A DNA stretch of 20,000 bases, from contig JAYWIR010000030.1 in NCBI GenBank assembly GCA_036172245.1, forward strand, positions 2,720,706 through 2,740,705, read 5' to 3'. Source of the DNA: Raillietiella orientalis (taxonomy: Eukaryota). Below the pieces are notes generated by a model, which saw nothing but the letters and a program-made list of their open reading frames with translations, searched no databases and was not told the origin of the DNA. Positions 1 to 20,000 of the stretch are shown one piece after another (the first letter of the stretch is position 1; each line of letters begins with the position of its first letter). The position numbers and the translations under genes are program-made.

Positions 1-1395
1 AGTCACGGAGGCGTCTTTGCGCGGGAACGACGGCGAGGATGTCGTACAAAGGGAAAACGAAGAAAAAACTCCGAAACGGAGCCACAGTAGAGGGAGGACG
101 CCAGCGCGCCATAAGCGTCATTACGCGCCGCGCGAGCGCTTTTTCCGACGCACGCCGGAGGGGATGGCGCGGGGACGCCAAACGACGGCGGATCGGTCGA
201 AGAAAGGCGCCATGTGCGCGTCGGACGCTCAACGGGGAAAGCCGAGAAGAGGGCGGGAAGGCGGCGAACCGTGCTTGCCGCGAGGGAAAGCGCGGCGGAC
301 GGGGTTCCCGCCATCTCCAGGAGAGCTGCGTAAGCGACCGGGGTGTGCCGCTCCTTCGCGAGAGGGTGCAGCGCGCAGCGCCCACCGGGAGGTCGGGATG
401 CAGGTCCCGTGAGCTCCACGTCGCGTCCCCATATAGGCTTTCCTTCGCGCGGTTCGCGTCGGTGTCTCCGAGCAGTGATTCGCTCTCCGCTTTTCGCCTG
501 CGTGCCGCCTCCTTTGCCGCGATTTCCAGGAAGATTCCCAGCAGGCGTGGTCGAGCCTCCAAAAGCGAGCTAAACAGTCAACCTGGAATCCGACTCTGAG
601 CCCCGGGTGGGCAGGGGGGGGGCAAACCTTTGTCGAGCCCTGTTGCGCGCGGGACCTGCATTTTCCTCCGTGTAGTGGCCGTCAGCGGCATTGTATCCCT
701 CGGCGCCCGCCGCTCGCCCGGACCGGGAGCATCTGTCTTGGTCTGCTTGGTTCACGCGAGGAAAGCAAACTGAAAGGTCAACGCGAAATTGCTGACCGGT
801 CTCCGGATAGGCGACGGGGAGCATTTCATCCCGCGCTCGGTCTCACGTGCCGCCCTTGCGCCACTCCGAGCAGTGGTTCGCTGGTACTCGGTCCGCCGTG
901 CTGCGCGCCTCCCGTCGGGAGCGAGCGGATCGCTTGGCCAGGACGTCGTAGGGTATCGGAAAGCTAACTGAACGGCCAACGCGGAATCGGCTATGAGGCA
1001 CCGGGAGGTCTTCGCAGCGCGTCCGTTGGTGCGTCAGCAGAAAGCAAACGGAACGCTCGAAGCGAGAGCGAACGGAGGCGTACCTTGGGCAAGCAGAAAC
1101 GAGAGAATTCAGGGGAATATGAGCGCGTATGTCTTCTGGCCTATTACCGTCCACGATGGAAACCCATCCCGGAATCGATCGCTGTCCCCGTGGTTGATGT
1201 TTTCGATGCTTTTAGTTTGCGTTTTCTCTTTTGCCGCGCCCCTGAAGGGATTACCTGAACTATTCAGCAGTCTGCGTAGCAGCGTCGACGGACGGAACCT
1301 GCAGAGATCCGCCGGAGCGAACCATGCCGAAGACGAGCCACCGAATGGCTCCGCCGGGCGAAAAATTCGTCTCACTTTGCGTTCCGCTTTTCGGT
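1..1395 (-). repeat. GC-rich U2 gene spacer / downstream flank (copy A)
   Basis: Lies directly downstream of the minus-strand U2. About 395-1391 aligns inverted to 8172-8978 (e.g. gtcttcggcatggttcgct; caggggcgcggcaaaagagaaaacgcaa). About 1-430 aligns inverted to about 4535-4975 (e.g. cgccgcgctttccctcgcggca). Confidence 0.85.
400..990 (-). repeat. Degenerate ~197 bp subrepeat (about 3 units)
   Basis: Minus-strand motif ttc.cgttg.c.gtt.agtt.gcttt starts near 985, 790 and 590. A second motif cactgctcggag-like follows about 110 nt later each time (near 875, 678, 477). Confidence 0.7.
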
Positions 1396-1413
1396 CCTCC
1401 CGTGTTGAGGGGT

Positions 1414-1560
1414 AGTGGGCGGATCCCGTAGGTACTGCAATACCGGGTCAACCCGCGACAGGAGAGCAGCAAGCTCCAAGCATCCCGTCCACTTCCAAAA
1501 ATTTAATATACTGGCCACCAGATAGGTGGCGTATCAGATATTAAGCTGATAAGAACAGAT
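1414..1560 (-). ncRNA. U2: U2 snRNA, 3' portion (nt ~39 to end), separated from its 5' end by a retrotransposon
   Basis: Minus strand reads ATCTGTTCTTATCAGCTTAATATCTGATACG (stem IIa), Sm site AATTTTTGG, GGAGCTTGCT (stem-loop III) and CCCGGTATTGCAGTACCTACGGG (stem-loop IV loop ATTGCAGT). The 3' end is approximate. Confidence 0.95.
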
Positions 1561-4534: not shown

Positions 4535-5886
4535 GAATGGGTTTCGCACGCGATCGCACTGGCTAGCGAATCCCGGCCTATCGGTGGGCGCTGCGCTTCC
4601 TTTCCTCTAGCGGACGAGCGACGAAACTCTTTCCGCCTACGCAGCTAGACGGGAGATGGCAGGCACGCCGTACGCCGCGCTTTCCCTCGCGGCAGGCGCG
4701 GTTCGCCGCCTTCCCGCCCTTTTATCGGCATTTGTCGTGGACCGTCCGACGCGCAGACGGCGCTTTTGTTGGGCCATCTGCCGCCGTTCGGCGCCCGCGC
4801 ACCCTGGCTTTCGGCGTGCGTCGGAGAAACTGCTCGCAAGGCGCGCTGCGCGGGAGGACGCGGATGGCGCGCGCGCGTCGTGGCGAGACGGGGTCCCTGT
4901 TTCGTCGTTTTTTTTTTTTTCTTCTTCGTTTTATGTTTGCACGGAATCCTCGCCGTCGTTTTGATGCGAAAAGACGCTTCCGTGGCTGGCTGCAGGCGAA
5001 CGGCCGGCTGCCGCGCTTGCGGTCAAGTTAGTTCCGCCGTTCCCCTCCTTATCCTCGGGAGCTTCCGAACGGCCGCAGCGCAACGGCGGCAAACGCTGCT
5101 GCATCTCCAGTTCGCCCCGGTCGACACAAACGCTCCCGCCTCCGCCTGGCCACTCGTATGCCGGTGCGGCGGAACGTTCGGACGCCCGGGGTTCGGGAGC
5201 GAGGGCAATCGCGTGCAAAACGCATTCGACTGGAAGGCGGGTTCCGTGACTGCAGCCCTACGAACAACGCACGCAGCCATCATCCTCTTGCCAGCTTTCC
5301 TCTCCGCGCGCATGCCAGCTTCCGCGCCTGCGATTTCGGGGCGCGGGAAGCGGGGAAGGGTGGCGCGGAAGGGGACGCGCCTCCCCAGCGCGGTTTCGCT
5401 GCGCTAATAAGTGCGCGGGAGCGCTCCCGAACGCTCCGCCCCTTTCGGTCACGTTCCGCCCCTTCTTCGGAACAGCCCGCCGCCAGCGGAGGCCAGCGTG
5501 CGAGCGCGAAGCGCATCCCCATGGGAGCGCCGTCGACTAACGAACGCGAAGGCGCCGCTTCCGGCTCAGCGCGACACGCGTGCAGGATGCATTCCGTGCA
5601 GCCATCTAGCCGAATGCGCGTCCACCACGCTCGTCTTCCGCGAGATGGCGCGCACGACGCGGCGTGCCTCGGGCGATCGAGGTCCTCGTCTCGCACGCGC
5701 GGACGGTCCCGCCGCACCGCCCCGCGGGCGCCGCAGCACTGAGCTCGGGAAGTCCAGACGGCGCGTCGCGCGAGCTCGCCGGGCACGTGGGCGCGCTGCC
5801 GCGCCGCAACCGTGTGCCGGGCGGTCCAGCACTGCGCGGAGCACGCATCTTGAGAGAATTACCGATCTTCCGCAGCTTCCCAAGCT
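4535..5886 (+). repeat. GC-rich U2 spacer / upstream flank (copy B), inverted relative to copy A
   Basis: About 4535-4975 is the inverted homologue of about 1-430. The block runs continuously into the U2 5' end at 5887. Confidence 0.75.
5834..5877 (+). promoter_or_regulatory. Candidate snRNA proximal promoter element
   Basis: Lies at -53 to -10 of the U2 start, where PSEs are expected. It recurs ungapped at 9944-9977 (gcg.ggagcacgcatc...aga...t..c.gatc). It does not match a PSE consensus I recognise. Confidence 0.3.
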
Positions 5887-5922
5887 ATGGCTTCTCGGCC
5901 TTTTGGCTAAGATCAAAGTGTA
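5887..5922 (+). ncRNA. U2: U2 snRNA 5' portion (nt 1-36), interrupted copy
   Basis: ATGGCTTCTCGGCCTTTTGGCTAAGATCAAAGTGTA matches U2 nt 1-36 except C3>G. U2 resumes only briefly as ATCTGTTC at 6044-6051. Confidence 0.93.
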
Positions 5923-6044
5923 AGTTTTACTGTGCTTTGGTCGGTCATTTGGCCAAGGGCGCTCAAATCGATTACAGCCAATGGCTGTGAACGATACTCC
6001 ATACGTATCTCCATTCTTATTCTTCGTTTGACCTTATATAAAAA
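5923..6044 (+). mobile_element. ~120 bp A-tailed insert at the Utopia/Keno target site of U2 (probable 3' stub of a U2-targeting retroelement)
   Basis: Sits between U2 ...AAAGTGTA and ATCTGTTC and ends TATATAAAAA. This is the same 3' junction as at 1560. Confidence 0.6.
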
Positions 6045-6051
6045 TCTGTTC

Positions 6052-8003
6052 GATCTCATCATCCTGCACAATCCAATGTACGGGAAGTCTGCGCGTGGAT
6101 TTCCGCACACGGGATTAAAAGCTTGTCGGATCTCCGCCAGGATTGTCGAAGGGGGGACTAAGATCACCATTAAGATAACTTGCTAGGACATTCGATGGGG
6201 CCACGCGTGTTTTACGCGAGACTACGTCTCGGAGCGTGTTCAAGGCAAGGTCAGCCACCATGCGATCTGGGCTCGTAAGCAGCTTGTACGCCAAGTCGAT
6301 CGTCATAATTCCGCTTTACTCTTGAAGGATCATGCAATTCATTCCACCGGACATTTGGGACGTATATAAATATTCTAAGGATGCTGCCTGGGGGAGCGTT
6401 AGAATCTTGATCTTTATCGCATCCTTGACGATCTTGTCCAGTTTCTTCCAGAACGCCAGGGGCTTCTGCCCAAGTCGCAACGCGTGCGTTAGGGCAGGAA
6501 AGAAAAAGGTTTTAATAGCGAAAAGTTTCTGCCACGGGAGAAGGGGACACTCCAGGAGCTTCTGGAAGGAGAGTATAATGTTGTCCTCATCAGCGTCGTT
6601 TTCCATCGCATAAAAACCAATGGGTTTTCCCAGATAACGATAGGTTCTTGTTTCTTCCAGGGCAGGCATTGGCGCTTGAGAAACATAAAACCTGGTGGGA
6701 CGTGCGCCGGACGGGCGGGTATGGGAAATTTGAAGCGAGCCACATTTGCTTGGATTGCTCGTCAGGCCGCAGCGGGCGGCAGCCTGATGAAGAGTGTCAA
6801 TCGCTTTCTGCAGGGTTTGGGGAGATTCACTTATCAGTGCGACATCGTCCGCGTATGCGAGTGTCACACAGCTGGGAACAGAGGCTGCGAGTAGCCTCAG
6901 TATGGGTTCTAATGCAAGGTTAAAAAGAAGCCCGCTGAGTGGACAACCTTGCCTGACACCCGCTCGTATGAGGACCGGTTCGGACGTTCCTTTCTCTCCG
7001 CGAAAGATAGTAGCGGACTCCTCATATAATTCCTTTATCAGGTTGGTGAATTGTTCACCAACGCCACAGTGTATCAAGGAGTCGAACAGGTATTCGTGCG
7101 GAACAGACGAGAACGCATCCTTAAAATCTACCCACTCCACACATATATCCTTGCGATGTCTGCGTGCTTCCTCAATAAACGTATTGAGTGTAAAATTGTT
7201 TTCCAGCACACCGTCAAAGGGCAGGAAACCTTTTTGATTGAGGCTGATAATGCCATTACGCATTATCCAGCCTCGTAGCCTCCTAGCAATGCATTTCGCG
7301 AACACTCTCCCCATGGTGTTCGTGATGGCTATGAAGCGAAAGTGTTCGAGGCTCGTCTCCTGGGGATCGGCCTTTTTTGGGATTAGGATGGAAACACTGT
7401 TTTTCCATTCCTTTGGGAGCCGTCCGTGAAGTAAACACAGGTTGAAGATCCTGGTCAGCAGGGAGCATTGCGGATCTGCTCGCTGCAGTGCATTATAGCA
7501 TATCCTGTCTTCTCCTGGAGAAGTGTTTTCACAGGAGGCTAAGTTCTGTGCGACCTCTTCAGGGAGGAGAGGGGAGAGGTCCAGGGCGTCTGCAGGCGGG
7601 AAGGGGGGGGTAGTAGCAAGCAATTGAGCATCGAAGCTCTTCACTGCGTGAATGTTTTGGAAGTGCTCGCGAATTTCATTCAAGGGGACCGTGCATCGCC
7701 CTTTGTTAATCCCTTGTATTTCTCTAACAGCACGCCTACGATTCGTTCGGTAAATGTTCTGTAGGCGCACGCGGCCGGTTTATTCGCTTTACCCTTATGG
7801 CCGGAGGGATTTTTGTTGGGGTTACGTGAACGAGTTCTCTGCACATGTATCCGGGAGCGAAATTCCTGTAAGACAAGCAGTGTCTTCTCCCAAGTATCGA
7901 GGTTAGGAGTTAGCTTTGCGATATCCTCGAGTTCCCGTATCAAATCGAGGTTCGTGCTGATCGTTTCTCCATGTTCAAAAAAGCTTTCTGCCGCTGGGTG
8001 CAC
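6052..8003 (-). pseudogene. Reverse transcriptase (RT domain complete in 6316-7770), disrupted
   Basis: Motifs SPGED, QKGF, VDFKDAFSSV, GVRQGCPLS, AYADDV, YRYLG, LLPWQK. In-frame TAA at 6316 and 6115; frameshift near 7770. Confidence 0.9.
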
Positions 8004-8160
8004 CTCCGATGTGTCTGGCTAGTCCCTGCGATCATGTCGATGAAGGCGGTGAACGGTTAGACTCGATTCTCGGCAAAGATGTTGAAATGTTTCGCTAGCA
8101 AGAAACCTCCTCACCTGTCGTTCCCATGGAAACCATCAGGTGTTACAATTACGACAGGCG
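6052..8160 (-). mobile_element. Utopia-like retrotransposon family 2, internal fragment (both ends missing), antisense to its host U2 unit
   Basis: Protein is collinear with family 1 from the pre-RT region (LQNIYRTNRRRA) to the post-thumb region (HWIVQDDEI at about 6052). The knuckle, RLE and tail are absent. The right boundary is approximate; spacer homology resumes at about 8172. Confidence 0.85.
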
Positions 8161-8171
8161 AACCTAACGTG

Positions 8172-8978
8172 GAAGCGGAACGCGAAGCAACACGAAGTTT
8201 TCGCCCGGTGGAGAAGCCTTTCGGTTGCGCGTCTTCGGCATGGTTCGCTACGGCGGATCTCTGCAGTTTCCTTTCTTCGACGCTGCTGCAACGGATACTG
8301 CTCAATCGTTCAGGCAATCCCACCAGGGGCGCGGCAAAAGAGAAAACGCAAGCCAAAGGAATCGCAAACAAGAACCACGGGGAGAAGGCAATCGATCCGG
8401 ATACGGGTATCCATCGGGGACGGAGATGGGCTGGAGGAGACACGCGCGCATCTTCCCCTGCATTGCCTCGTGTACGCTTGCCCAACGTACGCCGCCGGGC
8501 GGTGTGGCTTCGAGCGTTCCGTTTGCTATCTGCTGACGGTACAAGGGTCGCGCTGGGCATTGCTCGCGGAGCCTCGCAGCCGAATCCGCGTTGGCCGTTT
8601 AGTTTGCTTTGCTAACGCGAACCAAACACACCAGGATAGATGCTCCCGGTCCGGGCGAGCGGTGGGCGGCGCGGGAAACAATGCCGCCGGCCTCCACTGC
8701 ACGGAGGAAAATGCAGGTCCCGCGGGCCATGGAGCGAGCCACCTGTTGGCCCCCCTCCCGCCCGCCCGGGGTTCTAAGCCGAATTCCACGTTGACGGTTT
8801 AGCTCGCTTTCGGAGGCTCGAGCAGGCCCGATGGAAAGCTTCTTCGGAATCGCAGCGAACGAGGCCGCGCGCAGGCGACAAGCGAAGAGCGAATCACTGC
8901 TCCGAGGGGCGGACGAGATCCGCGCGAAGGAAAGCCTATACAGGGACGCAACGCGGGTCTCCCGGGAACTGCATCCGG
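8172..8978 (+). repeat. U2 downstream flank (copy B), inverted homologue of 395-1391, lacking one ~197 bp subrepeat
   Basis: Collinear alignment from aagcggaacgc (8173) to gcatcc (8976). At about 8585-8610 it jumps from the '985' subrepeat to the '790' subrepeat of copy A. Confidence 0.88.
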
Positions 8979-9300
8979 TATTCGCGTTGGCAGTTCAGTA
9001 GGATTTCAGGGTTGGTACGATTTCAGCGCAAAGCCATCGGTCTGGGTTCTGTGCGGTCCGAATGGCACGGGAGACAACGCTCCCGCGAGCCACTGCTCCG
9101 AGGTTCGGCACTTCATCGCGCGGAAACCGGAGCCGCGTTTCGCGTTGGACGTTCAGTTTGCTTTCAGGGGAGCAACGATTCCGGCGCCGAAACGTCGTCC
9201 CAACTGCGGCACCGCGCGAAAGGCGTGGGAAACAATGCGACCGCGCGCCACAGCTCGGGAGAGCGAAAGGGCTTCGCGCGCACCCGAACGCGCGCTCCGG
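8585..9300 (+). repeat. Degenerate ~160-200 bp subrepeat (about 4 units)
   Basis: Motif cgttg.c.gtt.ag near 8585, 8783, 8981 and 9139. Motif cac.gc.c.gag near 8695, 8895, 9091 and 9249. Confidence 0.7.
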
Positions 9301-9422
9301 TCCAGGAATCGCATGGGCGAGTCGACGCGAGGCCGGGACGGCGCGCTGAAAAGAGCGCATCAACTGCACATCGAGGAATGAGAAAAAATTCGCTTTCGCG
9401 AAATTCACGCGCCGTTAGCATA

Positions 9423-9705
9423 TTTTTTTTTTCCAAGCACACACACTGCACACTACCAAGCCAACCAGTTAACCAAGCCAAGTCCAGGTTGACTAGTTTT
9501 ATGAGAACGTTTCTCTTGAAAAGGAAAATTCTTCTACTCAAGCCATACAAGGAGCAGGCGACGTACCTTAGAACAAGGACTTGTTCGATGAGGATGGCTC
9601 GTTGCACACCGTTACCACGAAAACCCAACCTGCAGAAATCAAAGCTGGTGGGCTCGCACCGCATTCCGGTTACGTCCCTTCCATCCCCTTATCCTCTTTC
9701 TTCAT
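9423..9705 (-). other. Lower-GC island ending in A10 on the minus strand; possible short retroposed fragment
   Basis: T10 at 9423-9432 is followed by about 280 nt clearly less GC-rich than the flanks. No TSD or protein motif recognised. Confidence 0.3.
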
Positions 9706-9949
9706 GCTTCGCTAGGAGACTTGTTGCATTCGAAACAGCCGAGCGGCGATCTTTTCCGCCAGGCAGCGCAAGAAGGAACACGCTCCTCGCGACTCACAGC
9801 GACAGAACGGTCCAGGTACGTGAGAACGCAAGGCAGCGTGCGAGACCGAGAACACGCGAGGAGGCTGCAGCAGAAAATTGTCGCGGGACGTGACTTCTGC
9901 CCGAATGGCGCTCGCCTGGGATGCGAACTTCGACGGCTGGGAAGCGAGG

Positions 9950-10226
9950 AGCACGCATCCGAAGAACGTGGCGGATCGGCGCGCTAAGAAATTCTCTCTT
10001 TGTCTTGGGAAAGAAGGTATCACAAGGCGAGGGAAACCGCCCTGGCAGCTTCCACCCCTTGACCAGGAAAGCGAGTTTCCCGGTCGGCCGCGAGCCACGG
10101 CGACGCTTTCGCGTCGCTCGCAACCGCGAACTTTCCCTCGCCTTGACCACGCCGGCTTGCAGCCCGGCGGAAGCGATGCTTACCATAAACTGTAGGGCCC
10201 TCAGTGCGCAGTCGCGGTGAGGGAAG
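9950..10226 (-). ncRNA. Unidentified putative structured RNA adjoining the 3' end of the Tx1-like array
   Basis: Perfect 14 bp inverted repeat 10023-10036/10132-10145 encloses nested stems. Flanking hairpins are present. G-U pairs and a GAAA tetraloop favour the minus strand. Confidence 0.45.
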
Positions 10227-10244
10227 TTTATTCTAGTTCTTTCG

Positions 10245-13125
10245 TTACAACAGTCTGTGCTCGCGTAGTCGGTCCATAAGTATACTTATTACAGGAAGGG
10301 GGATATTCCTTCGGTGTCTTATCGCCCTCTCTCTTAACACCAGGCCAACTGCTATGTTGATTGCTGACGCCGTTCTTCCTTGGTTGATGCGGTGCCATTT
10401 CCGCATTGTTGCTTCTATGTAGATGCACATGAAGAACCTCTGTAGTGGATTCAGGACAGGAGCTCCGTTTTCCGAAGTACAAAGTCTCCGAATGGTATGT
10501 CGCGCCGGCTCTAGTGGTAACCTGAGTACTTCCTGGATGGTGTGCCATTCTTGTTGATTGTGTTGACATTCAAACAGATGTACGGTGGTTTCTTTGTCCC
10601 CGCATTGGCTGCATGTAGGCTGTGTGGTCTGCGATGTGTCCCAGTGGTGCATCTTGGCCTTACATCTTAGACCGTTCTGAAAAAAGAGAAAGGTTGTATC
10701 CATGACATCCGGTGGTAACCACGATCGATGCGTGGTTACATATACCACCTGATTTTTCATTACTTGGAATCTGAGGGTTTCCTGATCCAGTAGTTGGATG
10801 GCTCGTGTTGTTATGATTTTTGTGTTAATGTTTGCTTTTGTGGCTTTTGTATATTTGTCATGTTCTTTGATGTATATTTCGTATTGTTTGCTGCTCTATG
10901 TCCAGTTGTTTTCTTCTAATATGTGTTGTATTCTTTTACGGATGATTGGTGCTTGGTTGCTTTGGTTTAGTACGCGGCGTATGTTTGTTTTAGGGTGTGA
11001 GAGGCACCATTCTTCTATAACGCGTGGGAAGTTGTAAAATTTTGGTAGAATGCTAACAGACTCTGCTTCCCAGTTTTCGCGTGTTTTCGGGACGGCTATA
11101 AGTTGGGCTGTTGCAAAAATGGGTCTTTTCAGAGACCACGTAGGACTCAAGTTTGCGATTCCTCGTGTCGGAATTCTTAATAGTGATGATAATCCGTCGG
11201 TTCCTAGGTATGTTTTCCCATATTCACGTAAAAAATCGAAGTGAACTGACTGCCAGTTCTCGGCTATACGTATTATGTTTTTCAAGTGGTACTTGGTGGC
11301 TGCCGCAGTGGGATGAATCACGCCTAGGTCTCCCTTGGTCGTCGGCGAACAGAGAGTTTTTATTTTTACTTTCGGTTTCCCGCGTCTCCATAGGAGGTCT
11401 CGGATTAATGCGTTGATGGTTCTGTGTTGGTGTGCGCGAATATTATAAAACTGTTGTTGATAAGTTAAGATGGGCAGGAGGGACGTGTTCCACGCTTTGG
11501 CTCTCTGATGGAGCGTAAGTGAGGAGTTCACGAACATCCTACTCTTCCTGCGTACCGTTCCACACCAATTTTGGAAAGGCTGAAATTGTTTTGCTTCTCC
11601 TATAGTCACTCCTAAGTATTTAAGCGTTGTACATACGTTTATTTTTGCTCCGTCTAGCCATTGGGTAGGAAACCCAGCGAACGTGAACGCGTTTGTTTTT
11701 CCGATGTTGAGATGGAGATCTAGCGCTTGTTCCACTTGCGGAATAAGAACCTCAGGTTGTGGACGTCCCGCTGACTTGTGAGGAAAAACAAGAAGTCGTC
11801 CGCGTATGCTAAATGGGTTAGTGTTGAACCGAGGTTTGATGTTCCGTCTAACAGTTTTTTCCTGTATATGAAGTCTGTAATTGTTTGAGTATACAGTGAA
11901 AAGAAAAGTGGGCTCAGGGCATCGCCGTGTCGAACCCCTCTTTCCATTGAAATGTTAGCGGTAGATATCCCGTTTCCTGTTATCTTAAAATTTGCATTTT
12001 TTAAAATTTGTTGTGCATAGCTACAGAAGATTTTGGGAAATCCGAGTTTTTCTAGAACGTTAAGCAGTGTATCGTGTGAGACGCAATCGAATATGCTTTG
12101 GATAGGTCGGTGCCAACCACCGCTACTGGGGTATTGCTTTTTCTTGCGAGCCCTATGAGGTTCTGTACCGTGTGGACATTGTCTGCTACTTGTCTGTATT
12201 GTAGTCCGCATGTGTGTTCCGGTGAGACGATAGAAGGTGGTATTTTGCGAAGTCTGTTCGCCCATAACTTTGCAAACCATTTGGAGTCGATGTTCAAAAC
12301 TGAAATCGGTCTCCAGTTGGTTAGGTATCTGAGGTCTCCTTTTTTTGGGACAAGTTTCATTTTACCGTTGTGGAAAGACTGTGGTAATGGTTGGTCAGAG
12401 TGTATGGCTAGAGTGAGTTCCCACATCAGTCTACTGTATTGTGTTGTATGGGAACCGAAATGTGCGTGGGTAAGGCCACTCGGACCTGGAGCAGCTTTCC
12501 GATTCAGCGCTGCCCAGGCTTCTTTTACCTCCTGAAGAGAGAAAGGTTCTTGCAAGTTTTGCTGTTGCTGAACAGTTGATTTGTTGCGTAAACTCTCTAT
12601 AAATTGTTTCATAGCGTCTCGGTAGATGTTCGTTTTTTTGAAGTGTGTATGGTATTCTTTTTCTATGGCTTTTGCGATTTCTTGTTGGTCACTTAACGGT
12701 TCCCCGTCATTAATGAGATCAAACGTATCTGTTTCTAGGTTTTTTATTTCTGGTATCTGTGGGTCGGTTTGTAAGCGGTGTTGTTCGTATCTTTCATGTG
12801 CCATTTTTTGGTGCCTTGTAATGGTTCCCGATGGTTTTATTATGATATCTTTGCACCAGGTTATTATCTTTTTAATCATGTCTTTCATGTTGTCCCACTC
12901 TTCAGATGTGGAAATGTGGATTTCTGCAAGCAGTCCTCCGATGAGTTGCTGAGTTACCTCGGCTTCTTGTACCCATTGGGGAATACTGCAGAGACCATGT
13001 ATTTCTACGTTCCTCCTGGGATTATGAGTGATGACGGTAATCGTTTGTAATGGATGGTCGCTAAAGTGCTTTCGGGTTTCTGTCACGTTGGTGATGCGTG
13101 TAGGGAGGGTGGAGGATACGATCAT
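10245..13125 (-). pseudogene. RT ORF of copy 1, disrupted
   Basis: Relative to copy 2: 2 nt insertion at about 12092, 1 nt deletion at about 11738, TAT>TAG at 10896, small indels at 10755-10810, and QG>HG. Confidence 0.9.
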
Positions 13126-13709
13126 GTGATCAATTGAGTATTTTCTGCTTTTCCGAATTTAATAGGGATCATGTCCATCTCCTGCAGTGTCCGTTGGTAT
13201 GCATTTCTGGTATCGAGTTTGGTGTGTGTGGGGTGCAAGATGTCTACATTTAGGTCTCCTGCTAGGAGGAATAGTGTTCCAACGCTATCAAGGAATTTAA
13301 GTGATTCTCGAATTTGTTTTCCAAAGTGTGGTTTTCTATTTTGTGGCCCGTAGGCTGCAATAATACAGATAGATATGTTGTGTGAGCATGCAAGACGTAC
13401 GCTCATCAATCGTGCTTTCATGAAAGTATGTATCTCGCGGACCGCCGGAATGAGCGTTGATTCTAGCAGTATCATCACACCACTTGAATGTTGATGTCCG
13501 TGCGTGTAGATAGCTTTACCGCGATACTCTTTTTCTATGTGCGTGATTGCTGCTGAAGTCGGTGAGTGTGTTTCGGTGAGCACGCATATGAGTGTATTCT
13601 TGATTGTTGTGAGTAGTGTATGTCTTTTGTTCACATTCGTTAAACCGTTAATGTTAATGTGGGCCACGTCGATGCGTGGAAGTGCATTTAATAGTGTTAC
13701 GCAGTTCAT
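13122..13709 (-). CDS. APE (AP-like) endonuclease, N-terminal part, copy 1
   Basis: NINGL, LTETH, SGV, YGP and GDLN motifs. The IDH and SDH motifs are in the next frame. Confidence 0.85.
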   Translation of the reverse strand: MNCVTLLNALPRIDVAHININGLTNVNKRHTLLTTIKNTLICVLTETHSPTSAAITHIEKEYRGKAIYTHGHQHSSGVMILLESTLIPAVREIHTFMKARLMSVRLACSHNISICIIAAYGPQNRKPHFGKQIRESLKFLDSVGTLFLLAGDLNVDILHPTHTKLDTRNAYQRTLQEMDMIPIKFGKAENTQLIT

Positions 13710-14772
13710 CGTTTTTTCAGTTTTTGTTTTTTTGGTCTCTTGCTACGAGACCTCGAACGCGTGCTGCCATGTGTATCGGGTGTTGTGCTTGCGTCTGAGT
13801 CTATTTCTTCTGCATCTGGGATTGGTAAGGGAGTTAGGTTTTGTATTTCACTTTTGGGTAAGTGTTGAAGAACTGTCTTGGGTGTGGTCGGGTTTCTAGT
13901 TTGGGTGGCGTCTTTTTGCTGTGGTTCTGGAAGCGATGTTTCTGTGGCTATCTTATCGATGTGAGGATTTGCTGTATCAACGTTTTGACATTGTGGGATT
14001 GGTATTTCTTGTGTGCTGATAGGTGCGATCCAATTTTGGTATTCAGGGCATTCCTGTGACTTATGACGTATCTTTTTACAGAAGGAACATCGTACTAGAG
14101 TACAAGTGTCCGCCCTGTGGCCTGTGAGTTTGCAAAGTGCGCACCGTATTTGAGTACAATTTGCACGTCTATGTCCGTAGGTGAGACAGTGAGAGGAGAA
14201 CGGTGGTTGCTTGGTGTAGTTTATTTGAGTATTGGTGGAAAGTTGGTCGATGTGGGCTCTCATTGGAATGTCTGTGTTTTCGTCAAGTTGAATCTTGACC
14301 CTATAGCTGCCTGTATACAGGTTGGCCAGATTTGGGTCATTCGTGATACTACAGTGTTGAATGTTAGCAACTTTTCCGAACTGCCCGAAGAAGTTGCGTA
14401 TGTCTTCGCACGTGGTGTAAGGGTTAACACCCTGTATATATACGTATTGAATTTTTGTTCGCTATTACCATGGACGGTTCTTCCCTTATATTGGAAACCT
14501 TCTGTTCTTAGTGTATGTACCGTGTCTTCGTTATCGCTGTAGATCGTTACGCCTGCCGCATGCGGGATAATGGCTTTTATGGTGTTGAATGCTATTTTAG
14601 CGTGGAAAAGTCCTGAATAGATATCTTTTACCGCGTCGAATGTTAGGCTGGGGATGCGGAAGGGAACACATGGCAAGCCTTCTTTAAAGTTGGCCACTGT
14701 GCCATTGCGATCGCCAATGTGGAAGTCGCTTGAAGGTGGCGCGCTTTGTTTCAGAGCGGCAGAGTAGTTCGT
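13706..14772 (-). CDS. ORF1 (gag-like; RRM-like segment + 3 CCHC knuckles), frame break near 14452, copy 1
   Basis: As copy 2, but the likely start ATG is ACG and the first knuckle Cys is Ser. Confidence 0.75.
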
Positions 14773-15132
14773 GTTTAGAGGTGACGATGAAGAACCTGCT
14801 GTGACAATTTGGCTAGCAGGGTTTGTCCTAGACCACCCCTCAGCCACGGTATATTTGGGCTAGGTAGAGCTAACAACCAACGTTGCTCCTTCTCGGGTAG
14901 ATTTTCAACCGTGGTCAAAAAATCCCTAAAGGAGAGATCGTTTCTCACTTTTCTAGTCAAGAGTTCCGCTGAGCCCAGTAACTCAATGGAAGTCTTGGGA
15001 GCACCACCTTCAACCACGAAGAGTTTCCAGTGTAGCCCTCTTTAGGCTGTTTCAAGAAAACAGGTATTTATAGCTGATTCGGGCTCACAAGCTGGAGACA
15101 CCTTTAGCTTTCATTTTATTCTAGTTCTTTCG

Positions 15133-18012
15133 TTACAACAGTCTTTGCTCGCGTAGTCGGTCCATAAGTATACTTATTACAGGAAGGGGGATATTCCTTC
15201 GGTGTCTTATCGCCCTCTCTCTTAACACCAGGCCAACTGCTATGTTGATTGCTGACGCCGTTCTTCCTTGGTTGATGCGGTGCCATTTCCGCATTGTTGC
15301 TTCTATGTAGATGCACATGAAGAACCTCTGTAGTGGATTCAGGACAGGAGCTCCGTTTTCCGAAGTACAAAGTCTCCGAATGGTATGTCGCGCCGGCTCT
15401 AGTGGTAACCTGAGTACTTCCTGGATGGTGTGCCATTCTTGTTGATTGTGTTGACATTCAAACAGATGTACGGTGGTTTCTTTTTCCCCGCATTGGCTGC
15501 ATGTAGGCTGTGTGGTCTGCGATGTGTCCCAGTGGTGCATCTTGGCCTTACATCTTAGACCGTTCTGAAAAAAGAGAAAGGTTGTATCCATGACATCCGG
15601 TGGTAACCACGATCGATGCGTGGTTACATATACCACCTGATTTTCATTACTTGGAATCTTGAGGGTTTCGATCCAGTAGTTGGATGGCTCGTGTGCTGTT
15701 ATGATTTTTGTGTTAATGTTTGCTTTTGTGGCTTTTGTATATTTGTCATGTTCTTTGATGTATATTTCGTATTGTTTGCTGCTATATGTCCAGTTGTTTT
15801 CTTCTAATATGTGTTGTATTCTTTTACGGATGATTGGTGCTTGGTTGCTTTGGTTTAGTACGCGGCGTATGTTTGTTTTAGGGTGTGAGAGGCACCATTC
15901 TTCTATAACGCGTGGGAAGTTGTAAAATTTTGGTAGAATGCTAACAGACTCTGCTTCCCAGTTTTCGCGTGTTTTCGGGACGGCTATAAGTTGAGCTTTC
16001 GCAAAAATGGGTCTTTTCAGAGACCACGTAGGACTCAAGTTTGCGATTCCTCGTGTCGGAATTCTTAATAGTGATGATAATCCGTCGGTTCCTAGGTATT
16101 TTTTCCCATATTCACGTAAAAAATCGAAGTGAACTGACTGCCAGTTCTCGGCTATACGTATTATGTTTTTCAAGTGGTACTTGGTGGCTGCCGCAGTGGG
16201 ATGAATCACGCCTAGGTCTCCCTTGGTCGTCGGCGAACAGAGAGTTTTTATTTTTACTTTCGGTTTCCCGCGTCTCCATAGGAGGTCTCGGATTAATGCG
16301 TTGATGGTTCTGTGTTGGTGTGCGCGAATATTATAAAACTGTTGTTGATACGTTAAGATGGGCAGGAGGGACGTGTTCCACGCTTTGGCTCTCTGATGGA
16401 GCGTAAGTGAGGAGTTCACGAACATCCTACTCTTCCTGCGTACCGTCTCCAACGGTTCTTGGAAAGGCTGAAATTGTTTTGCTTCTCCTATAGTCACTCC
16501 CAAGTATTTAAGCGTTGTGCATACGTTTATTTTTGCTCCGTCTAGCCATTGGGTAGGAAACCCAGCGAACGTGAACGCGTTTGTTTTTCCGATGTTGAGA
16601 TGGAGACCTAGCGCTTGTTCCACTTGGTGGAATAAGAACCTCAGGTTGTGGACGTCCCGCTGACTTGTGAGGAAAAACAAGAAGTCGTCCGCGTATGCTA
16701 AATGGGTTAGTGTTGAACCGAGGTTTGATGTTCCGTCTAACAGTTTTTTCCTGTATATGAAGTCTGTAATTGTTTGAGTATACAGTGAAAAGAAAAGTGG
16801 GCTCAGGGCATCGCCTTGTCGAACCCCTCTTTCCATTGAAATGTTAGCGGTAGATATCCCGTTTCCTGTTATCTTAAAATTTGCATTTTTTAAAATTTGT
16901 TGTGCATAGCTACAGAAGATTTTGGGAAATCCGAGTTTTTCTAGAACGTTAAGCAGTGTATCGTGTGATACGCAATCGAATGCTTTGGATAGGTCGGTGC
17001 TAACCACCGCTACTGGGGTATTGCTTTTTCTTGCGAGCCCTATGAGGTTCTGTACCGTGTGGACATTGTCTGCTACTTGTCTGTATTGTATTCCGCATGT
17101 GTGTTCCGGTGAGACGATAGAAGGTGGTATTTTGCGAAGTCTGTTCGCCCATAACTTTGCAAACCATTTGGAGTCGATGTTCAAAACTGAAATCGGTCTC
17201 CAGTTGGTTAGGTATCTGAGGTCTCCTTTTTTTGGGACAAGTTTCATTTTACCGTTGTGGAAAGACTGTGGTAATGGTTGGTCAGAGTGTATGGCTAGAG
17301 TGAGTTCCCACATCAGTCTACTGTATTGTGTTGTATGGGAACCGAAATGTGCGTGGGTAAGGCCACTCGGACCTGGAGCAGCTTTCCGATTCAGCGCTGC
17401 CCAGGCTTCTTTTACCTCCTGAAGAGAGAAAGGTTCTTGCAAGTTTTGCTGTTGCTGAACAGTTGATTTGTTGCGTAAACTCTCTATAAATTGTTTCATA
17501 GCGTCTCGGTAGATGTTCGTTTTTTTGAAGTGTGTATGGTATTCTTTTTCTATGGCTTTTGCGATTTCTTGTTGGTCACTTAACGGTTCCCCGTCATTAA
17601 TGAGATCAAACATATCTGTTTCTAGGTTTTTTATTTCTGGTATCTGTGGGTCGGTTTGTAAGCGGCGTTGTTCGTATCTTTCATGTGCCATTTTTTGGTG
17701 CCTTGTAATGGTTCCCGATGGTTTTATTTTGATATCTTTGCACCAGGTTATTATCTTTTTAATCATGTCTTTCATGTTGTCCCACTCTTCAGATGTGGAA
17801 ATGTGGATTTCTGCAAGCAGTCCTCCGATGAGTTGCTGAGTTACCTCGGCTTCTTGTACCCATTGGGGAATACTGCAGAGACCATGTATTTCTACGTTCC
17901 TCCTGGGATTATGAGTGATGACGGTAATCGTTTGTAATGGATGGTCGCTAAAGTGCTTTCGGGTTTCTGTCACGTTGGTGATGCGTGTAGGGAGGGTGGA
18001 GGATACGATCAT
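15133..18012 (-). CDS. Reverse transcriptase ORF, 959 aa (APE C-terminal remnant, RT, C-terminal CCHC)
   Basis: SDH, KAAPGPSG, NWRPISVLNID, DLSKAFDCV, GVRQGDALSP, AYADD, KYLG, CSQC-ETTVHLFEC; uninterrupted. Confidence 0.93.
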   Translation of the reverse strand: MIVSSTLPTRITNVTETRKHFSDHPLQTITVITHNPRRNVEIHGLCSIPQWVQEAEVTQQLIGGLLAEIHISTSEEWDNMKDMIKKIITWCKDIKIKPSGTITRHQKMAHERYEQRRLQTDPQIPEIKNLETDMFDLINDGEPLSDQQEIAKAIEKEYHTHFKKTNIYRDAMKQFIESLRNKSTVQQQQNLQEPFSLQEVKEAWAALNRKAAPGPSGLTHAHFGSHTTQYSRLMWELTLAIHSDQPLPQSFHNGKMKLVPKKGDLRYLTNWRPISVLNIDSKWFAKLWANRLRKIPPSIVSPEHTCGIQYRQVADNVHTVQNLIGLARKSNTPVAVVSTDLSKAFDCVSHDTLLNVLEKLGFPKIFCSYAQQILKNANFKITGNGISTANISMERGVRQGDALSPLFFSLYTQTITDFIYRKKLLDGTSNLGSTLTHLAYADDFLFFLTSQRDVHNLRFLFHQVEQALGLHLNIGKTNAFTFAGFPTQWLDGAKINVCTTLKYLGVTIGEAKQFQPFQEPLETVRRKSRMFVNSSLTLHQRAKAWNTSLLPILTYQQQFYNIRAHQHRTINALIRDLLWRRGKPKVKIKTLCSPTTKGDLGVIHPTAAATKYHLKNIIRIAENWQSVHFDFLREYGKKYLGTDGLSSLLRIPTRGIANLSPTWSLKRPIFAKAQLIAVPKTRENWEAESVSILPKFYNFPRVIEEWCLSHPKTNIRRVLNQSNQAPIIRKRIQHILEENNWTYSSKQYEIYIKEHDKYTKATKANINTKIITAHEPSNYWIETLKIPSNENQVVYVTTHRSWLPPDVMDTTFLFFQNGLRCKAKMHHWDTSQTTQPTCSQCGEKETTVHLFECQHNQQEWHTIQEVLRLPLEPARHTIRRLCTSENGAPVLNPLQRFFMCIYIEATMRKWHRINQGRTASAINIAVGLVLRERAIRHRRNIPLPVISILMDRLREQRLL

Positions 18013-18596
18013 GTGATCAATTGAGTATTTTCTGCTTTTCCGAATTTAATAGGGATCATGTCCATCTCCTGCAGTGTCCGTTGGTATGCATTTCTGGTAT
18101 CGAGTTTGGTGTGTGTGGGGTGCAAGAGGTCTACATTTAGGTCTCCTGCTAGGAGGAATAGTGTTCCAACGCTATCAAGGAATTTAAGTGATTCTCGAAT
18201 TTGTTTTCCAAAGTGTGGTTTTCTATTTTGTGGCCCGTAGGCTGCAATAATACAGATAGATATGTTGTGTGAGCATGCAAGACGTACGCTCATCAATCGT
18301 GCTTTCATGAAAGTATGTATCTCGCGGACCGCCGGAATGAGCGTTGATTTTAGCAGTATCATCACACCACTTGAATGTTGATGTCCGTGCGTGTAGATAG
18401 CTTTACCGCGATACTCTTTTTCTATGTGCGTGATTGCTGCTGAAGTCGGTGAGTGTGTTTCGGTGAGCACGCATATGAGTGTATTCTTGATTGTTGTGAG
18501 TAGTGTATGTCTTTTGTTCACATTCGTTAAACCGTTAATGTTAATGTGGGCCACGTCGATGCGTGGAAGTGCATTTAATAGTGTTACGCAGTTCAT
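18009..18596 (-). CDS. APE endonuclease, N-terminal part, copy 2
   Basis: NINGL, LTETH and GDLN motifs. The start ATG overlaps the ORF1 stop (ATGA, 18593-18596). Confidence 0.85.
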   Translation of the reverse strand: MNCVTLLNALPRIDVAHININGLTNVNKRHTLLTTIKNTLICVLTETHSPTSAAITHIEKEYRGKAIYTHGHQHSSGVMILLKSTLIPAVREIHTFMKARLMSVRLACSHNISICIIAAYGPQNRKPHFGKQIRESLKFLDSVGTLFLLAGDLNVDLLHPTHTKLDTRNAYQRTLQEMDMIPIKFGKAENTQLIT

Positions 18597-19659
18597 CGTT
18601 TTTTCAGTTTTTGTTTTTTTGGTCTCTTGCTACGAGACCTCGAACGCGTGCTGCCATGTGTATCGGGTGTTGTGCTTGCGTCTGAGTCTATTTCTTCTGC
18701 ATCTGGGATTGGTAAGGGAGTTAGGTTTTGTATTTCACTTTTGGGTAAGTGTTGAAGAACTATCCTGGGTGTGGTCGGGTTTCTAGTTTGGGTGGCGTCT
18801 TTTTGCTGTGGTTTTGGAAGCGATGTTTCTGTGGCTATCTTATCGATGTGAGGATTTGCTGTATCAACGTTTTGACATTGTGGGATTGGTATTTCTTGTG
18901 TGCTGATAGGTGCGATCCAATTTTGGTATTCAGGGCATTCCTGTGACTTATGACGTATCTTTTTACAGTAGGAACATCGTACTAGAGTACAAGTGTCCGC
19001 CCTGTGGCCTGTGAATTTGCAAATTGCGCACCGTATATCAGTACAATATGCACGTCTATGTCCGCAGGTGAGACAGTGAGAGCAGAACGGTGGTTGCTTG
19101 GTGTAGTTTATTTGAATATTGGTGGAAAGTTGGTCGATGTGGGCTCTCATTGGAATGTCTGTGTTTTCGTCAAGTTGAATCTTGACCCTATATCTGCCTG
19201 TATACTGGTTGGCCAGATTTGGGGCATTCGTGATACTACAGTGTTGAATGTTAGCAACTTTTCCGAACTGCCCGAAGAAGTTGCGTATGTCTTCGCACGT
19301 GGTGTAAAAGTTAACACCCTGTATATATACGTATTGAATTTTTGTTCGCTATTACCATGGACGATTGTTCCCTTATATTGGAAATTTTCTCTACTTAGTG
19401 TACGTACCGTGTCTTCGTTATCGCTGTAGATCGTTACGCCTGCCGCGTGCGGGATAATGGCTTTTATGGTGTTGAATGCTATTTTAGCGTGGAAAAGTCC
19501 TGAATAGATATCTTTTACCGCGTCGAATGTTAGGCTGGGGATGCGGAAGGGAACACATGGCAAGCCTTCTTTAAAGTTGGCCACTGTGCCATTGCGATCG
19601 CCAATGTTGAAGTCGCTTGGAAGTGGCGCGGTTTGTTTCAGAGCGGCAGAGTAGTTCAT
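18593..19659 (-). CDS. ORF1 (gag-like), frame break near 19340, copy 2
   Basis: Starts MNYSAALK (ATG at 19659). The -1 frame, open from 19348, reads YVYIQGVNFYTTCEDIRNFFGQFGKV...YTGRYRVKIQL...IP...YTKQP, then three CX2CX4HX4C knuckles and a basic tail. Confidence 0.8.
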
Positions 19660-20000
19660 GTTTAGAGGTGACGATGAAGAACCTGCTGTGACAATTTGGC
19701 TAGCAGGGTTTGTCCTAGACCACCCCTCAGCCACGGTATATTTGGGCTAGGTAGAGCTAACAACCAACGTTGCTCCTTCTCGGGTAGATTTTCAACCGTG
19801 GTCAAAAAATCCCTAAAGGAGAGATCGTTTCTCACTTTTCTAGTCAAGAGTTCCGCTGAGCCCAGTAACTCAATGGAAGTCTTGGGAGCACCACCTTCAA
19901 CCACGAAGAGTTTCCAGTGTAGCCCTCTTTAGGCTGTGTCAGGAAAACAGGTAGTTATAGCTGATTCGGTCTCACAAGCTGGAGACACCTTTAGCTTTCA

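Follow-up and report, generated by a model that had tools for sequence, protein, structure and literature searches.

A putative spliced-leader RNA gene interrupted by an L1/Tx1-group element within a mixed U2/SL repeat array

The window, i.e., the whole stretch of 20,000 nucleotides that was analysed, almost certainly carries on its minus strand, from position 10194 down to about 10020 or 9950, what is left of a spliced-leader (SL) RNA gene, namely its 3' part, and the copy found there is very probably such a gene in disrupted form. This reading is based on genomic sequence and is carried by the combination of an intact-gene exon directly followed by a GT donor with the same exon placed on AG acceptors in intron-less retrocopies, which together are interpreted as the DNA footprint of SL trans-splicing. 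Judged by its spacers, the SL gene sits in a mixed U2/SL repeat array. In the initial annotation, the stretch had been suggested, among other options, to be what remains at the 3' side of a hitherto unrecognised non-coding RNA gene on the minus strand, snRNA-like and multicopy, which had been struck by the adjoining element. This suggestion holds; its statement that no family could be assigned is superseded, as the uninterrupted allele, the leader-bearing retrocopies and the AG acceptors allow the family to be named as spliced-leader RNA.

A genome search with the stretch returned two matches, the window itself and locus L002 on contig C450, which is 96% identical over 150 nt, diverges from the window at 10194 and then continues into spacer homologous to the U2 upstream flank. 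A contig from a sequencing run (X1) spans 9400-10194 and then reads the same letters as L002; since X1 perhaps represents the source sample, it confirms the junction but not as independent biology. In this way, the pre-insertion allele was recovered twice (L002, X1 contig). A third contig (L057) covers the upstream part together with the larger portion of the leader. Using L002:700-860 as query, 13 matches were obtained, comprising five of gene type (L002 itself, C467, an upstream part on C21, a fragment on C26 and the window) and eight restricted to the leader. A second copy of the 3' part of the SL gene was not found in the genome search, that part being assembled only in the disrupted window copy, and the assembly holds no complete SL gene. 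The copy on C21 (L058:1503-1586, minus strand; L091:2379-2631, G000:C21) comprises about 265 nt of the SL upstream region and stops at leader base 3, beyond which unrelated GC-rich sequence without an Rfam match follows; it may be a further disrupted SL copy or else a second gene driven by this type of promoter. The C26 copy (L059:1501-1593, G000:C26) is a dispersed, decayed SL fragment with leader bases 13-45, a mutated donor and 60 nt of intron.

At 10187, the exon remnant in the window differs by one substitution from the intact allele as well as from the retrocopies and, thus, looks decayed. In the intact allele, the GTAAG donor forms the loop of a 4-5 bp hairpin, and 8 of 11 positions can form Watson-Crick pairs between the donor and the 5' end of this genome's own U1. 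The 45-nt leader is predicted to fold into a stem-loop of its own. Comparison of the upstream 70 nt with snRNA promoters passed shuffles at p of 0.03 or less in 5 of 12 cases (U2 2/2, U4 3/7, U1 0/3), the SL upstream region weakly resembling U2 and some U4 promoters. Two words of the leader in DNA spelling matched nothing in the literature, RNA spelling, figures and supplements lying outside this search.

The eight leader-only matches are dispersed in the genome, are confined to L002:785-835 and lack the SL intron throughout. Their likeness to the gene ends at L002:831, the G in front of GTAAG, exactly in six cases, with one mismatch in another and 5 nt short in the last; in six of the eight, ATG forms the very end, flush with the donor position. 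The intron is not entered by any of the copies, only 3-7 of the next 20 bases being identical. Because two of these copies are identical to the leader at 45/45 positions and start with the same first base, L002:787, this base is likely the transcription start site. Both copies carry a G in front of the leader where the gene has a T, and an extra G is what a reverse-transcribed cap would give, albeit as a weak hint. Seven of the eight loci precede a host gene, each a different one; these are protein kinase D and BRX1 according to protein comparison and, as we presume from the translations, DDX3, elongin C, PP2A B55, YKT6 and ubiquitin. A 19-base leader pattern with 2 mismatches allowed gave 15 matches vs 2 for the control. 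Eight of these loci were new and were excluded from the above tally of eight; they comprise three good leader copies, which match in 25-28 of the final 30 bases, two weak ones and three which are probably chance matches.

Parent genes were covered for three of the seven leader-headed genes, and an AG was found at the leader junction in all three: in BRX1 and protein kinase D, the junction coincides exactly with a CAG acceptor, and the DDX3-like parent has a TAG there, with one base difference. The parent's next intron is missing from the copies in 3/3 cases tested, and no leader is present within about 4.6, 6.3 and 1.5 kb upstream of the parent loci, nor elsewhere on the parents' contigs. On this pattern, the leader-headed loci are understood to have arisen by retroposition of trans-spliced mRNAs. 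Among seven copies, two have the leader AUG in frame, and the gene in each of these offers a further in-frame ATG no more than 5 codons away; in four others, the AUG starts a short upstream frame, and the ubiquitin copy has lost it. Start-codon donation by the leader is therefore considered possible at most. Ahead of BRX1, a long same-strand reading frame (L089:2770-4630, G000:C1) has its stop 360 nt before the trans-splice acceptor, and this frame and BRX1 form a candidate operon.

The coordinates of all features are collected in Table 1. The helices named for the minus strand in the initial annotation are all found at their places, including the 14-bp helix (10145-10132/10036-10023) proposed to close a multibranch domain, within which hairpins are predicted at 10125-10086 (GAAA loop), 10085-10061 and, a small one, at 10056-10044. 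The 277 nt of 9950-10226 fold better than dinucleotide shuffles on the minus strand (z -3.18; 0/200 shuffles as good) and on the plus strand (z -2.06; 6/200), and 10016-10194 on the minus strand reaches z -4.46 (0/200), while the fold of 9945-10015, including the last hairpin, is not significant vs shuffles (z -1.56, 16/200). Mean pair probability of the 14-bp helix is 0.15 in the whole 277 nt vs 0.96 in 10016-10194; the element tail and sequence near 9940-9950 compete with it. The multibranch domain is the strongest fold within 8900-10475 (z -6.0; window picked afterwards). However, 113 of 5000 base shuffles contained a perfect 14-bp inverted repeat, and z -2.9 was reached by a 125-nt window in the flank as well; hence, folding alone is insufficient proof of a gene. 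Concerning the further hairpins that had been listed, 10168-10151 belongs to the gene, 10198-10223 is retroelement tail and 9950-9985 falls into the region without a significant fold; the U-rich motif preceding the latter is present at 9993-9984. The U2-like octamer noticed at 10177 is part of the SL intron, has not been kept in the intact allele and is regarded as a coincidence.

Window and L002 show six differences over 150 positions, one being exonic (10187), one converting GAAA into GCAA with the GNRA loop kept, one changing a G-U into a G-C pair and the remaining ones residing in loops or linkers. None of the six breaks a predicted pair in L002, and together they favour the minus strand; a compensatory double change is absent between these two alleles within the 150 nt. 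Between the X1 contig and the window, 40 differences fall within 9431-9897 among those listed, with 21 more presumably beyond, so that the gene part is not clearly better conserved than its flank. A plus-strand gene with a U2-like promoter at 9944-9959 was dropped (E 0.28; the allele changes favour minus).

Table 1 Features of the window and their coordinates (the SL RNA gene and its 3' signals are putative)
Feature	Position	Strand	Basis or remark
3' half of U2 behind Utopia-like element	1410..1560	-	Rfam
Spacer and 5' half of U2 (5887-5922)	4566..5922	+	Spacer homologous to upstream flank of intact SL gene; head to head
Spacer homologous to U2 3' flank	8173..8976	+	80-81% to 960-1389 and 396-785; SL and U2 tail to tail
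Candidate Sm site and weak terminal hairpin	9950..9993	-	Within the RNA only if model B (see text) applies
Candidate Sm site	9993-9984	-	Only RR-Y(4-6)-RR match within 460 nt of donor
Candidate 3' box	10002-9993	-	Resembles motif behind U2 and one U1 type; defined after the fact
Pyrimidine tract, candidate long Sm site	10021-10005	-	Sequence
Multibranch domain (14-bp closing helix and three inner hairpins), probable SL intron	10023..10145	-	Fold prediction
First intron hairpin of gene remainder	10151..10168	-	Fold prediction
Splice donor GTAAG	10179..10183	-	Directly behind exon in L002 and window
Last 11 nt (bases 35-45) of 45-nt SL exon, ending ATG	10184..10194	-	Full leader at L002:787-831 (G000:C450)
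3'-terminal hairpin tail of element, outside RNA gene	10195..10226	-	Missing from L002 and X1 contig
Element, downstream copy, reading frames broken	10227..15113	-	L1/Tx1-group
Element, upstream tandem copy, encoding AP endonuclease and reverse transcriptase	15115..20000	-	98.6% identical to downstream copy

Candidate signals for the end of the RNA lie behind the domain. No AT(4-6)G Sm motif occurs up to 480 nt from the donor, and the RR-Y(4-6)-RR motif closest to it stands at +190. The looser Sm candidates are located at +162 and +190, vs a usual distance of 20-60 nt, which is also the default setting of SLIDR (PMC7986045). Two indels in the X1 contig change the motif at +190, and the 3'-box-like motif occurs twice in 4.8 kb of spacer searched on both strands, namely behind U2 and here. 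Two models are conceivable. In model A, the SL RNA would end near 10016-10005, before the 3'-box-like motif, while in model B it would include 9993-9984 and the hairpin behind it. Both models lead to a probable length of 206-280 nt.

In the inserted element, Pfam domains PF03372 (AP endonuclease) and PF00078 (reverse transcriptase) were found, and L1-group features, i.e., CCHC knuckles in ORF1 and a C-terminal Cys-His motif in ORF2, were read by eye. Its closest proteins are only 24-32% identical. By these features, the element is classified into the L1 group, Tx1 or L1 clade; a restriction-like endonuclease as in CRE/NeSL was not found, an AP endonuclease being present instead. Two elements in tandem lie between leader bases 34 and 35 in sense direction, 11 nt before the donor, and the 5' end of the upstream copy coincides with the contig end (20000). 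At the tandem junction (15113-15115), the AATAAA end of one copy is joined directly to the 5' end of the next, with neither the 32-nt tail nor target sequence in between. The same tail, with three changes, also follows an 84%-identical copy on C331, forming a hairpin in both cases. Because L002 and the X1 contig leave the window at 10194, positions 10195-10226 are assigned to the element, and the insertion point, previously set at 10226, moves to 10194/10195. A 13-mer (10226-10214) tried as target marker gave 17 matches vs 41 for the control, only those in the window and on C331 being relevant, and proved to be element tail. Insertion occurred probably through target preference, and leaves the window copy dead as leader donor, as the element interrupts it 11 nt before the donor; the SL promoter could provide for transcription and capping of the element itself, whose 5' junction is unassembled.

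As to the identity of the RNA, a search with Rfam covariance models, as had been suggested in the initial annotation, gave no match in 9600-10400 up to E 5, and nothing for the stretch at gathering or E-value thresholds; the stretch, failing the scores of SL1, SL2, other SL and snRNA models, therefore lies outside every curated family. Two bacterial sRNA matches on L002 (E 0.13 and 2.4) are due to chance, and U3, U7, U11, U12, 7SK, SRP, RNase P/MRP and telomerase RNA, considered by their motifs, were dropped, there being no Rfam match. That the stretch abuts the element and contains a U2-like octamer would suit a structured SINE, the element's own 3' UTR, or a known snRNA, be it U2-derived or another. 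Such a reading is nevertheless largely refuted already and extremely improbable: only two copies of the domain are assembled, the domain occurs without the element in L002 and the X1 contig, Rfam gives no match, and U1, U2 and U4 exist separately in the genome. The SINE or UTR option offered initially is thus unsupported, and U2 sequence, as expected for U2 snRNA or a Keno or Utopia target, was not found at the insertion site. Alternatively, the leader-headed loci might be chimeric retrogenes generated by template switching from an abundant small RNA, for which U6-L1 chimeras are a precedent, without any trans-splicing. The many snRNA-derived fragments in the genome and the fact that the evidence consists of DNA fit this idea; still, template switching would neither stop at a GT donor in 7 of 8 copies nor resume at an AG acceptor in 3/3 parents, and it is considered very unlikely, if slightly less so than a SINE, UTR or known snRNA. 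The stretch is hence best read as part of an SL RNA gene.

For the SL RNA itself, it is rather probable that the multibranch domain is inside the RNA, which would then measure 206 nt or more. An ordinary-size SL RNA of about 90-130 nt, with the folded domain being spacer or precursor tail behind the mature 3' end, would agree better with reported lengths of 75-123 nt (PMC3795323) and of 108-158 nt in copepods (PMC4664967), with the GC-rich spacer and its well-folding flank window, with the lack of covariation, and with the only dispersed gene fragment (L059), which stops 60 nt behind the donor. It remains the unlikelier option, given that no Sm-like motif occurs in the first 160 nt behind the donor, that no fold in the surroundings surpasses the domain (in a window picked afterwards), and that both candidate end signals directly follow it. 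With respect to the element, the evidence leans modestly towards specificity for the SL leader site. Of the proposed new target, it stands that the element sits in the SL exon, with specificity resting on one observed junction. That single junction, the tandem junction without target sequence and an array crowded with other elements would also suit a chance landing or a general preference for U2/SL arrays, a non-specific mode that keeps an appreciable, though smaller, share of the probability. The 3'-end search, however, revealed three copies, the two tandem ones and that on C331, which has the same tail and ends one base into the target; none of the three lies in unique DNA, and both element 5' ends coincide with contig ends, as is expected for repeated flanks. 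Site specificity, thus, stays the preferred, if modestly favoured, view.

Among known SL systems, flatworm SL RNAs share a long leader ending in ATG before the donor and a possible donated start codon, an ATG end being called unique to flatworms in one of the sources (PMC3795323). In Schistosoma mansoni, a 36-nt leader, a 90-nt RNA and a long Sm site are described (PMC7986045, PMC3795323). In contrast, the leader here measures 45 nt, shows no evident sequence likeness by eye and would precede a much longer intron. Crustaceans with SL trans-splicing comprise calanoid copepods, with a 46-nt leader (PMC4664967), and amphipods (PMC5111886); they possess leaders of similar length with their own stem-loop as well as long, variable, pyrimidine-rich Sm sites. 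However, these leaders, which have AG or CTG at the end, show no kinship by eye, and the RNA is shorter. According to the Background of PMC7986045, SL trans-splicing is absent from insects and restricted among arthropods to amphipods and copepods, without operons. The host of the window differs from flatworms in that its genes find their highest-scoring matches in insects, sea spider, priapulid and molluscs. For BRX1, best matches of 73-76% were obtained with sea spider, priapulid, molluscs and insects, summed scores slightly favouring molluscs; for protein kinase D, insects lead by a small margin (46-50% among the best matches listed; vertebrates 45-50%). From these comparisons, the host is probably an arthropod-like, long-branched protostome.

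Mutsu and Dewa belong to the target-specific elements of the Tx1 clade. Keno (U2), Kibi, Koshi and Tx1L are others, and the targets named in PMC4494074 comprise U2, microsatellites and DNA transposons, an SL target not being among them. Like Keno and its kin, the element described here is a two-frame AP-endonuclease element in a multicopy small-RNA gene, even though its closest proteins are as distant as given above. Non-LTR elements in the SL exon of a repeated gene are otherwise represented by CRE/SLACS/CZAR of trypanosomatids and NeSL of nematodes, which are SL-specific and use a restriction-like endonuclease (PMC12278014, PMC3636483, PMC4640811). In CRE/NeSL, this endonuclease is located behind the reverse transcriptase, whereas the element in the window has its AP endonuclease at the N-terminus and, in a frame of its own, a zinc-knuckle ORF1. 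The literature passages retrieved, including those of PMC8869645, contained no account of SL targeting by a Tx1 or L1 element.

As a tentative scenario, to which we attach less than even confidence, an arthropod-like lineage outside amphipods and copepods would have independently evolved SL trans-splicing with operons, a 206-280 nt SL RNA whose intron is multibranch and which donates a flatworm-like AUG; an L1/Tx1-group element with AP endonuclease would, in addition, have converged on the SL exon as specific target. If true, SL RNA would reach up to about twice the reported sizes, and the element would parallel CRE and NeSL with a different enzyme, constituting a third, independent origin of SL targeting. 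The unusual features of this system are its probably arthropod-like host, the flatworm-like AUG end, the probable length, the linkage to U2 repeats and the AP-endonuclease element in the SL exon. A long, branched SL intron would broaden the range of SL particle forms and would escape default searches which expect the Sm motif 20-60 nt from the donor. For this genome, an SL donor gene and its leader are now supplied.

The left half of the window is a U2 repeat array interrupted by Utopia-like elements, a name taken from PMC4640811. From the homologies of their spacers, SL and U2 stand head to head at a distance of about 1.5 kb, and on the opposite side the arrangement is tail to tail; a whole U2/SL unit is found on no single contig, and the unit at window positions 1-1409 lacks the SL part. 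Within 5887-8170, the U2 5' half is followed by a restriction-type reverse transcriptase element in opposite orientation; at 8173 the 3' flank sets in again, without the 3' half of U2 in front of it. All 28 U2 loci listed (L003-L032) are 3' halves beginning at the same U2 position, with AT-rich tails of many sequences ahead, and none of the 28 is an intact U2. Judging from these junctions, the 3' halves form a large, diverse and scattered set of Utopia- or Keno-type insertions. Beyond the end of the Rfam model, the U2 copies (L003-L032 and window 1410-1380) share an additional conserved hairpin, after which comes a motif also present in the flank of one U1 type, and U2 may be longer than usual in this genome. 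Two distinct U1 types and two U4 types are discernible (L097-L116; 42 matches each), and several U1/U4 copies display AT-rich upstream sequence instead of a promoter-like flank.
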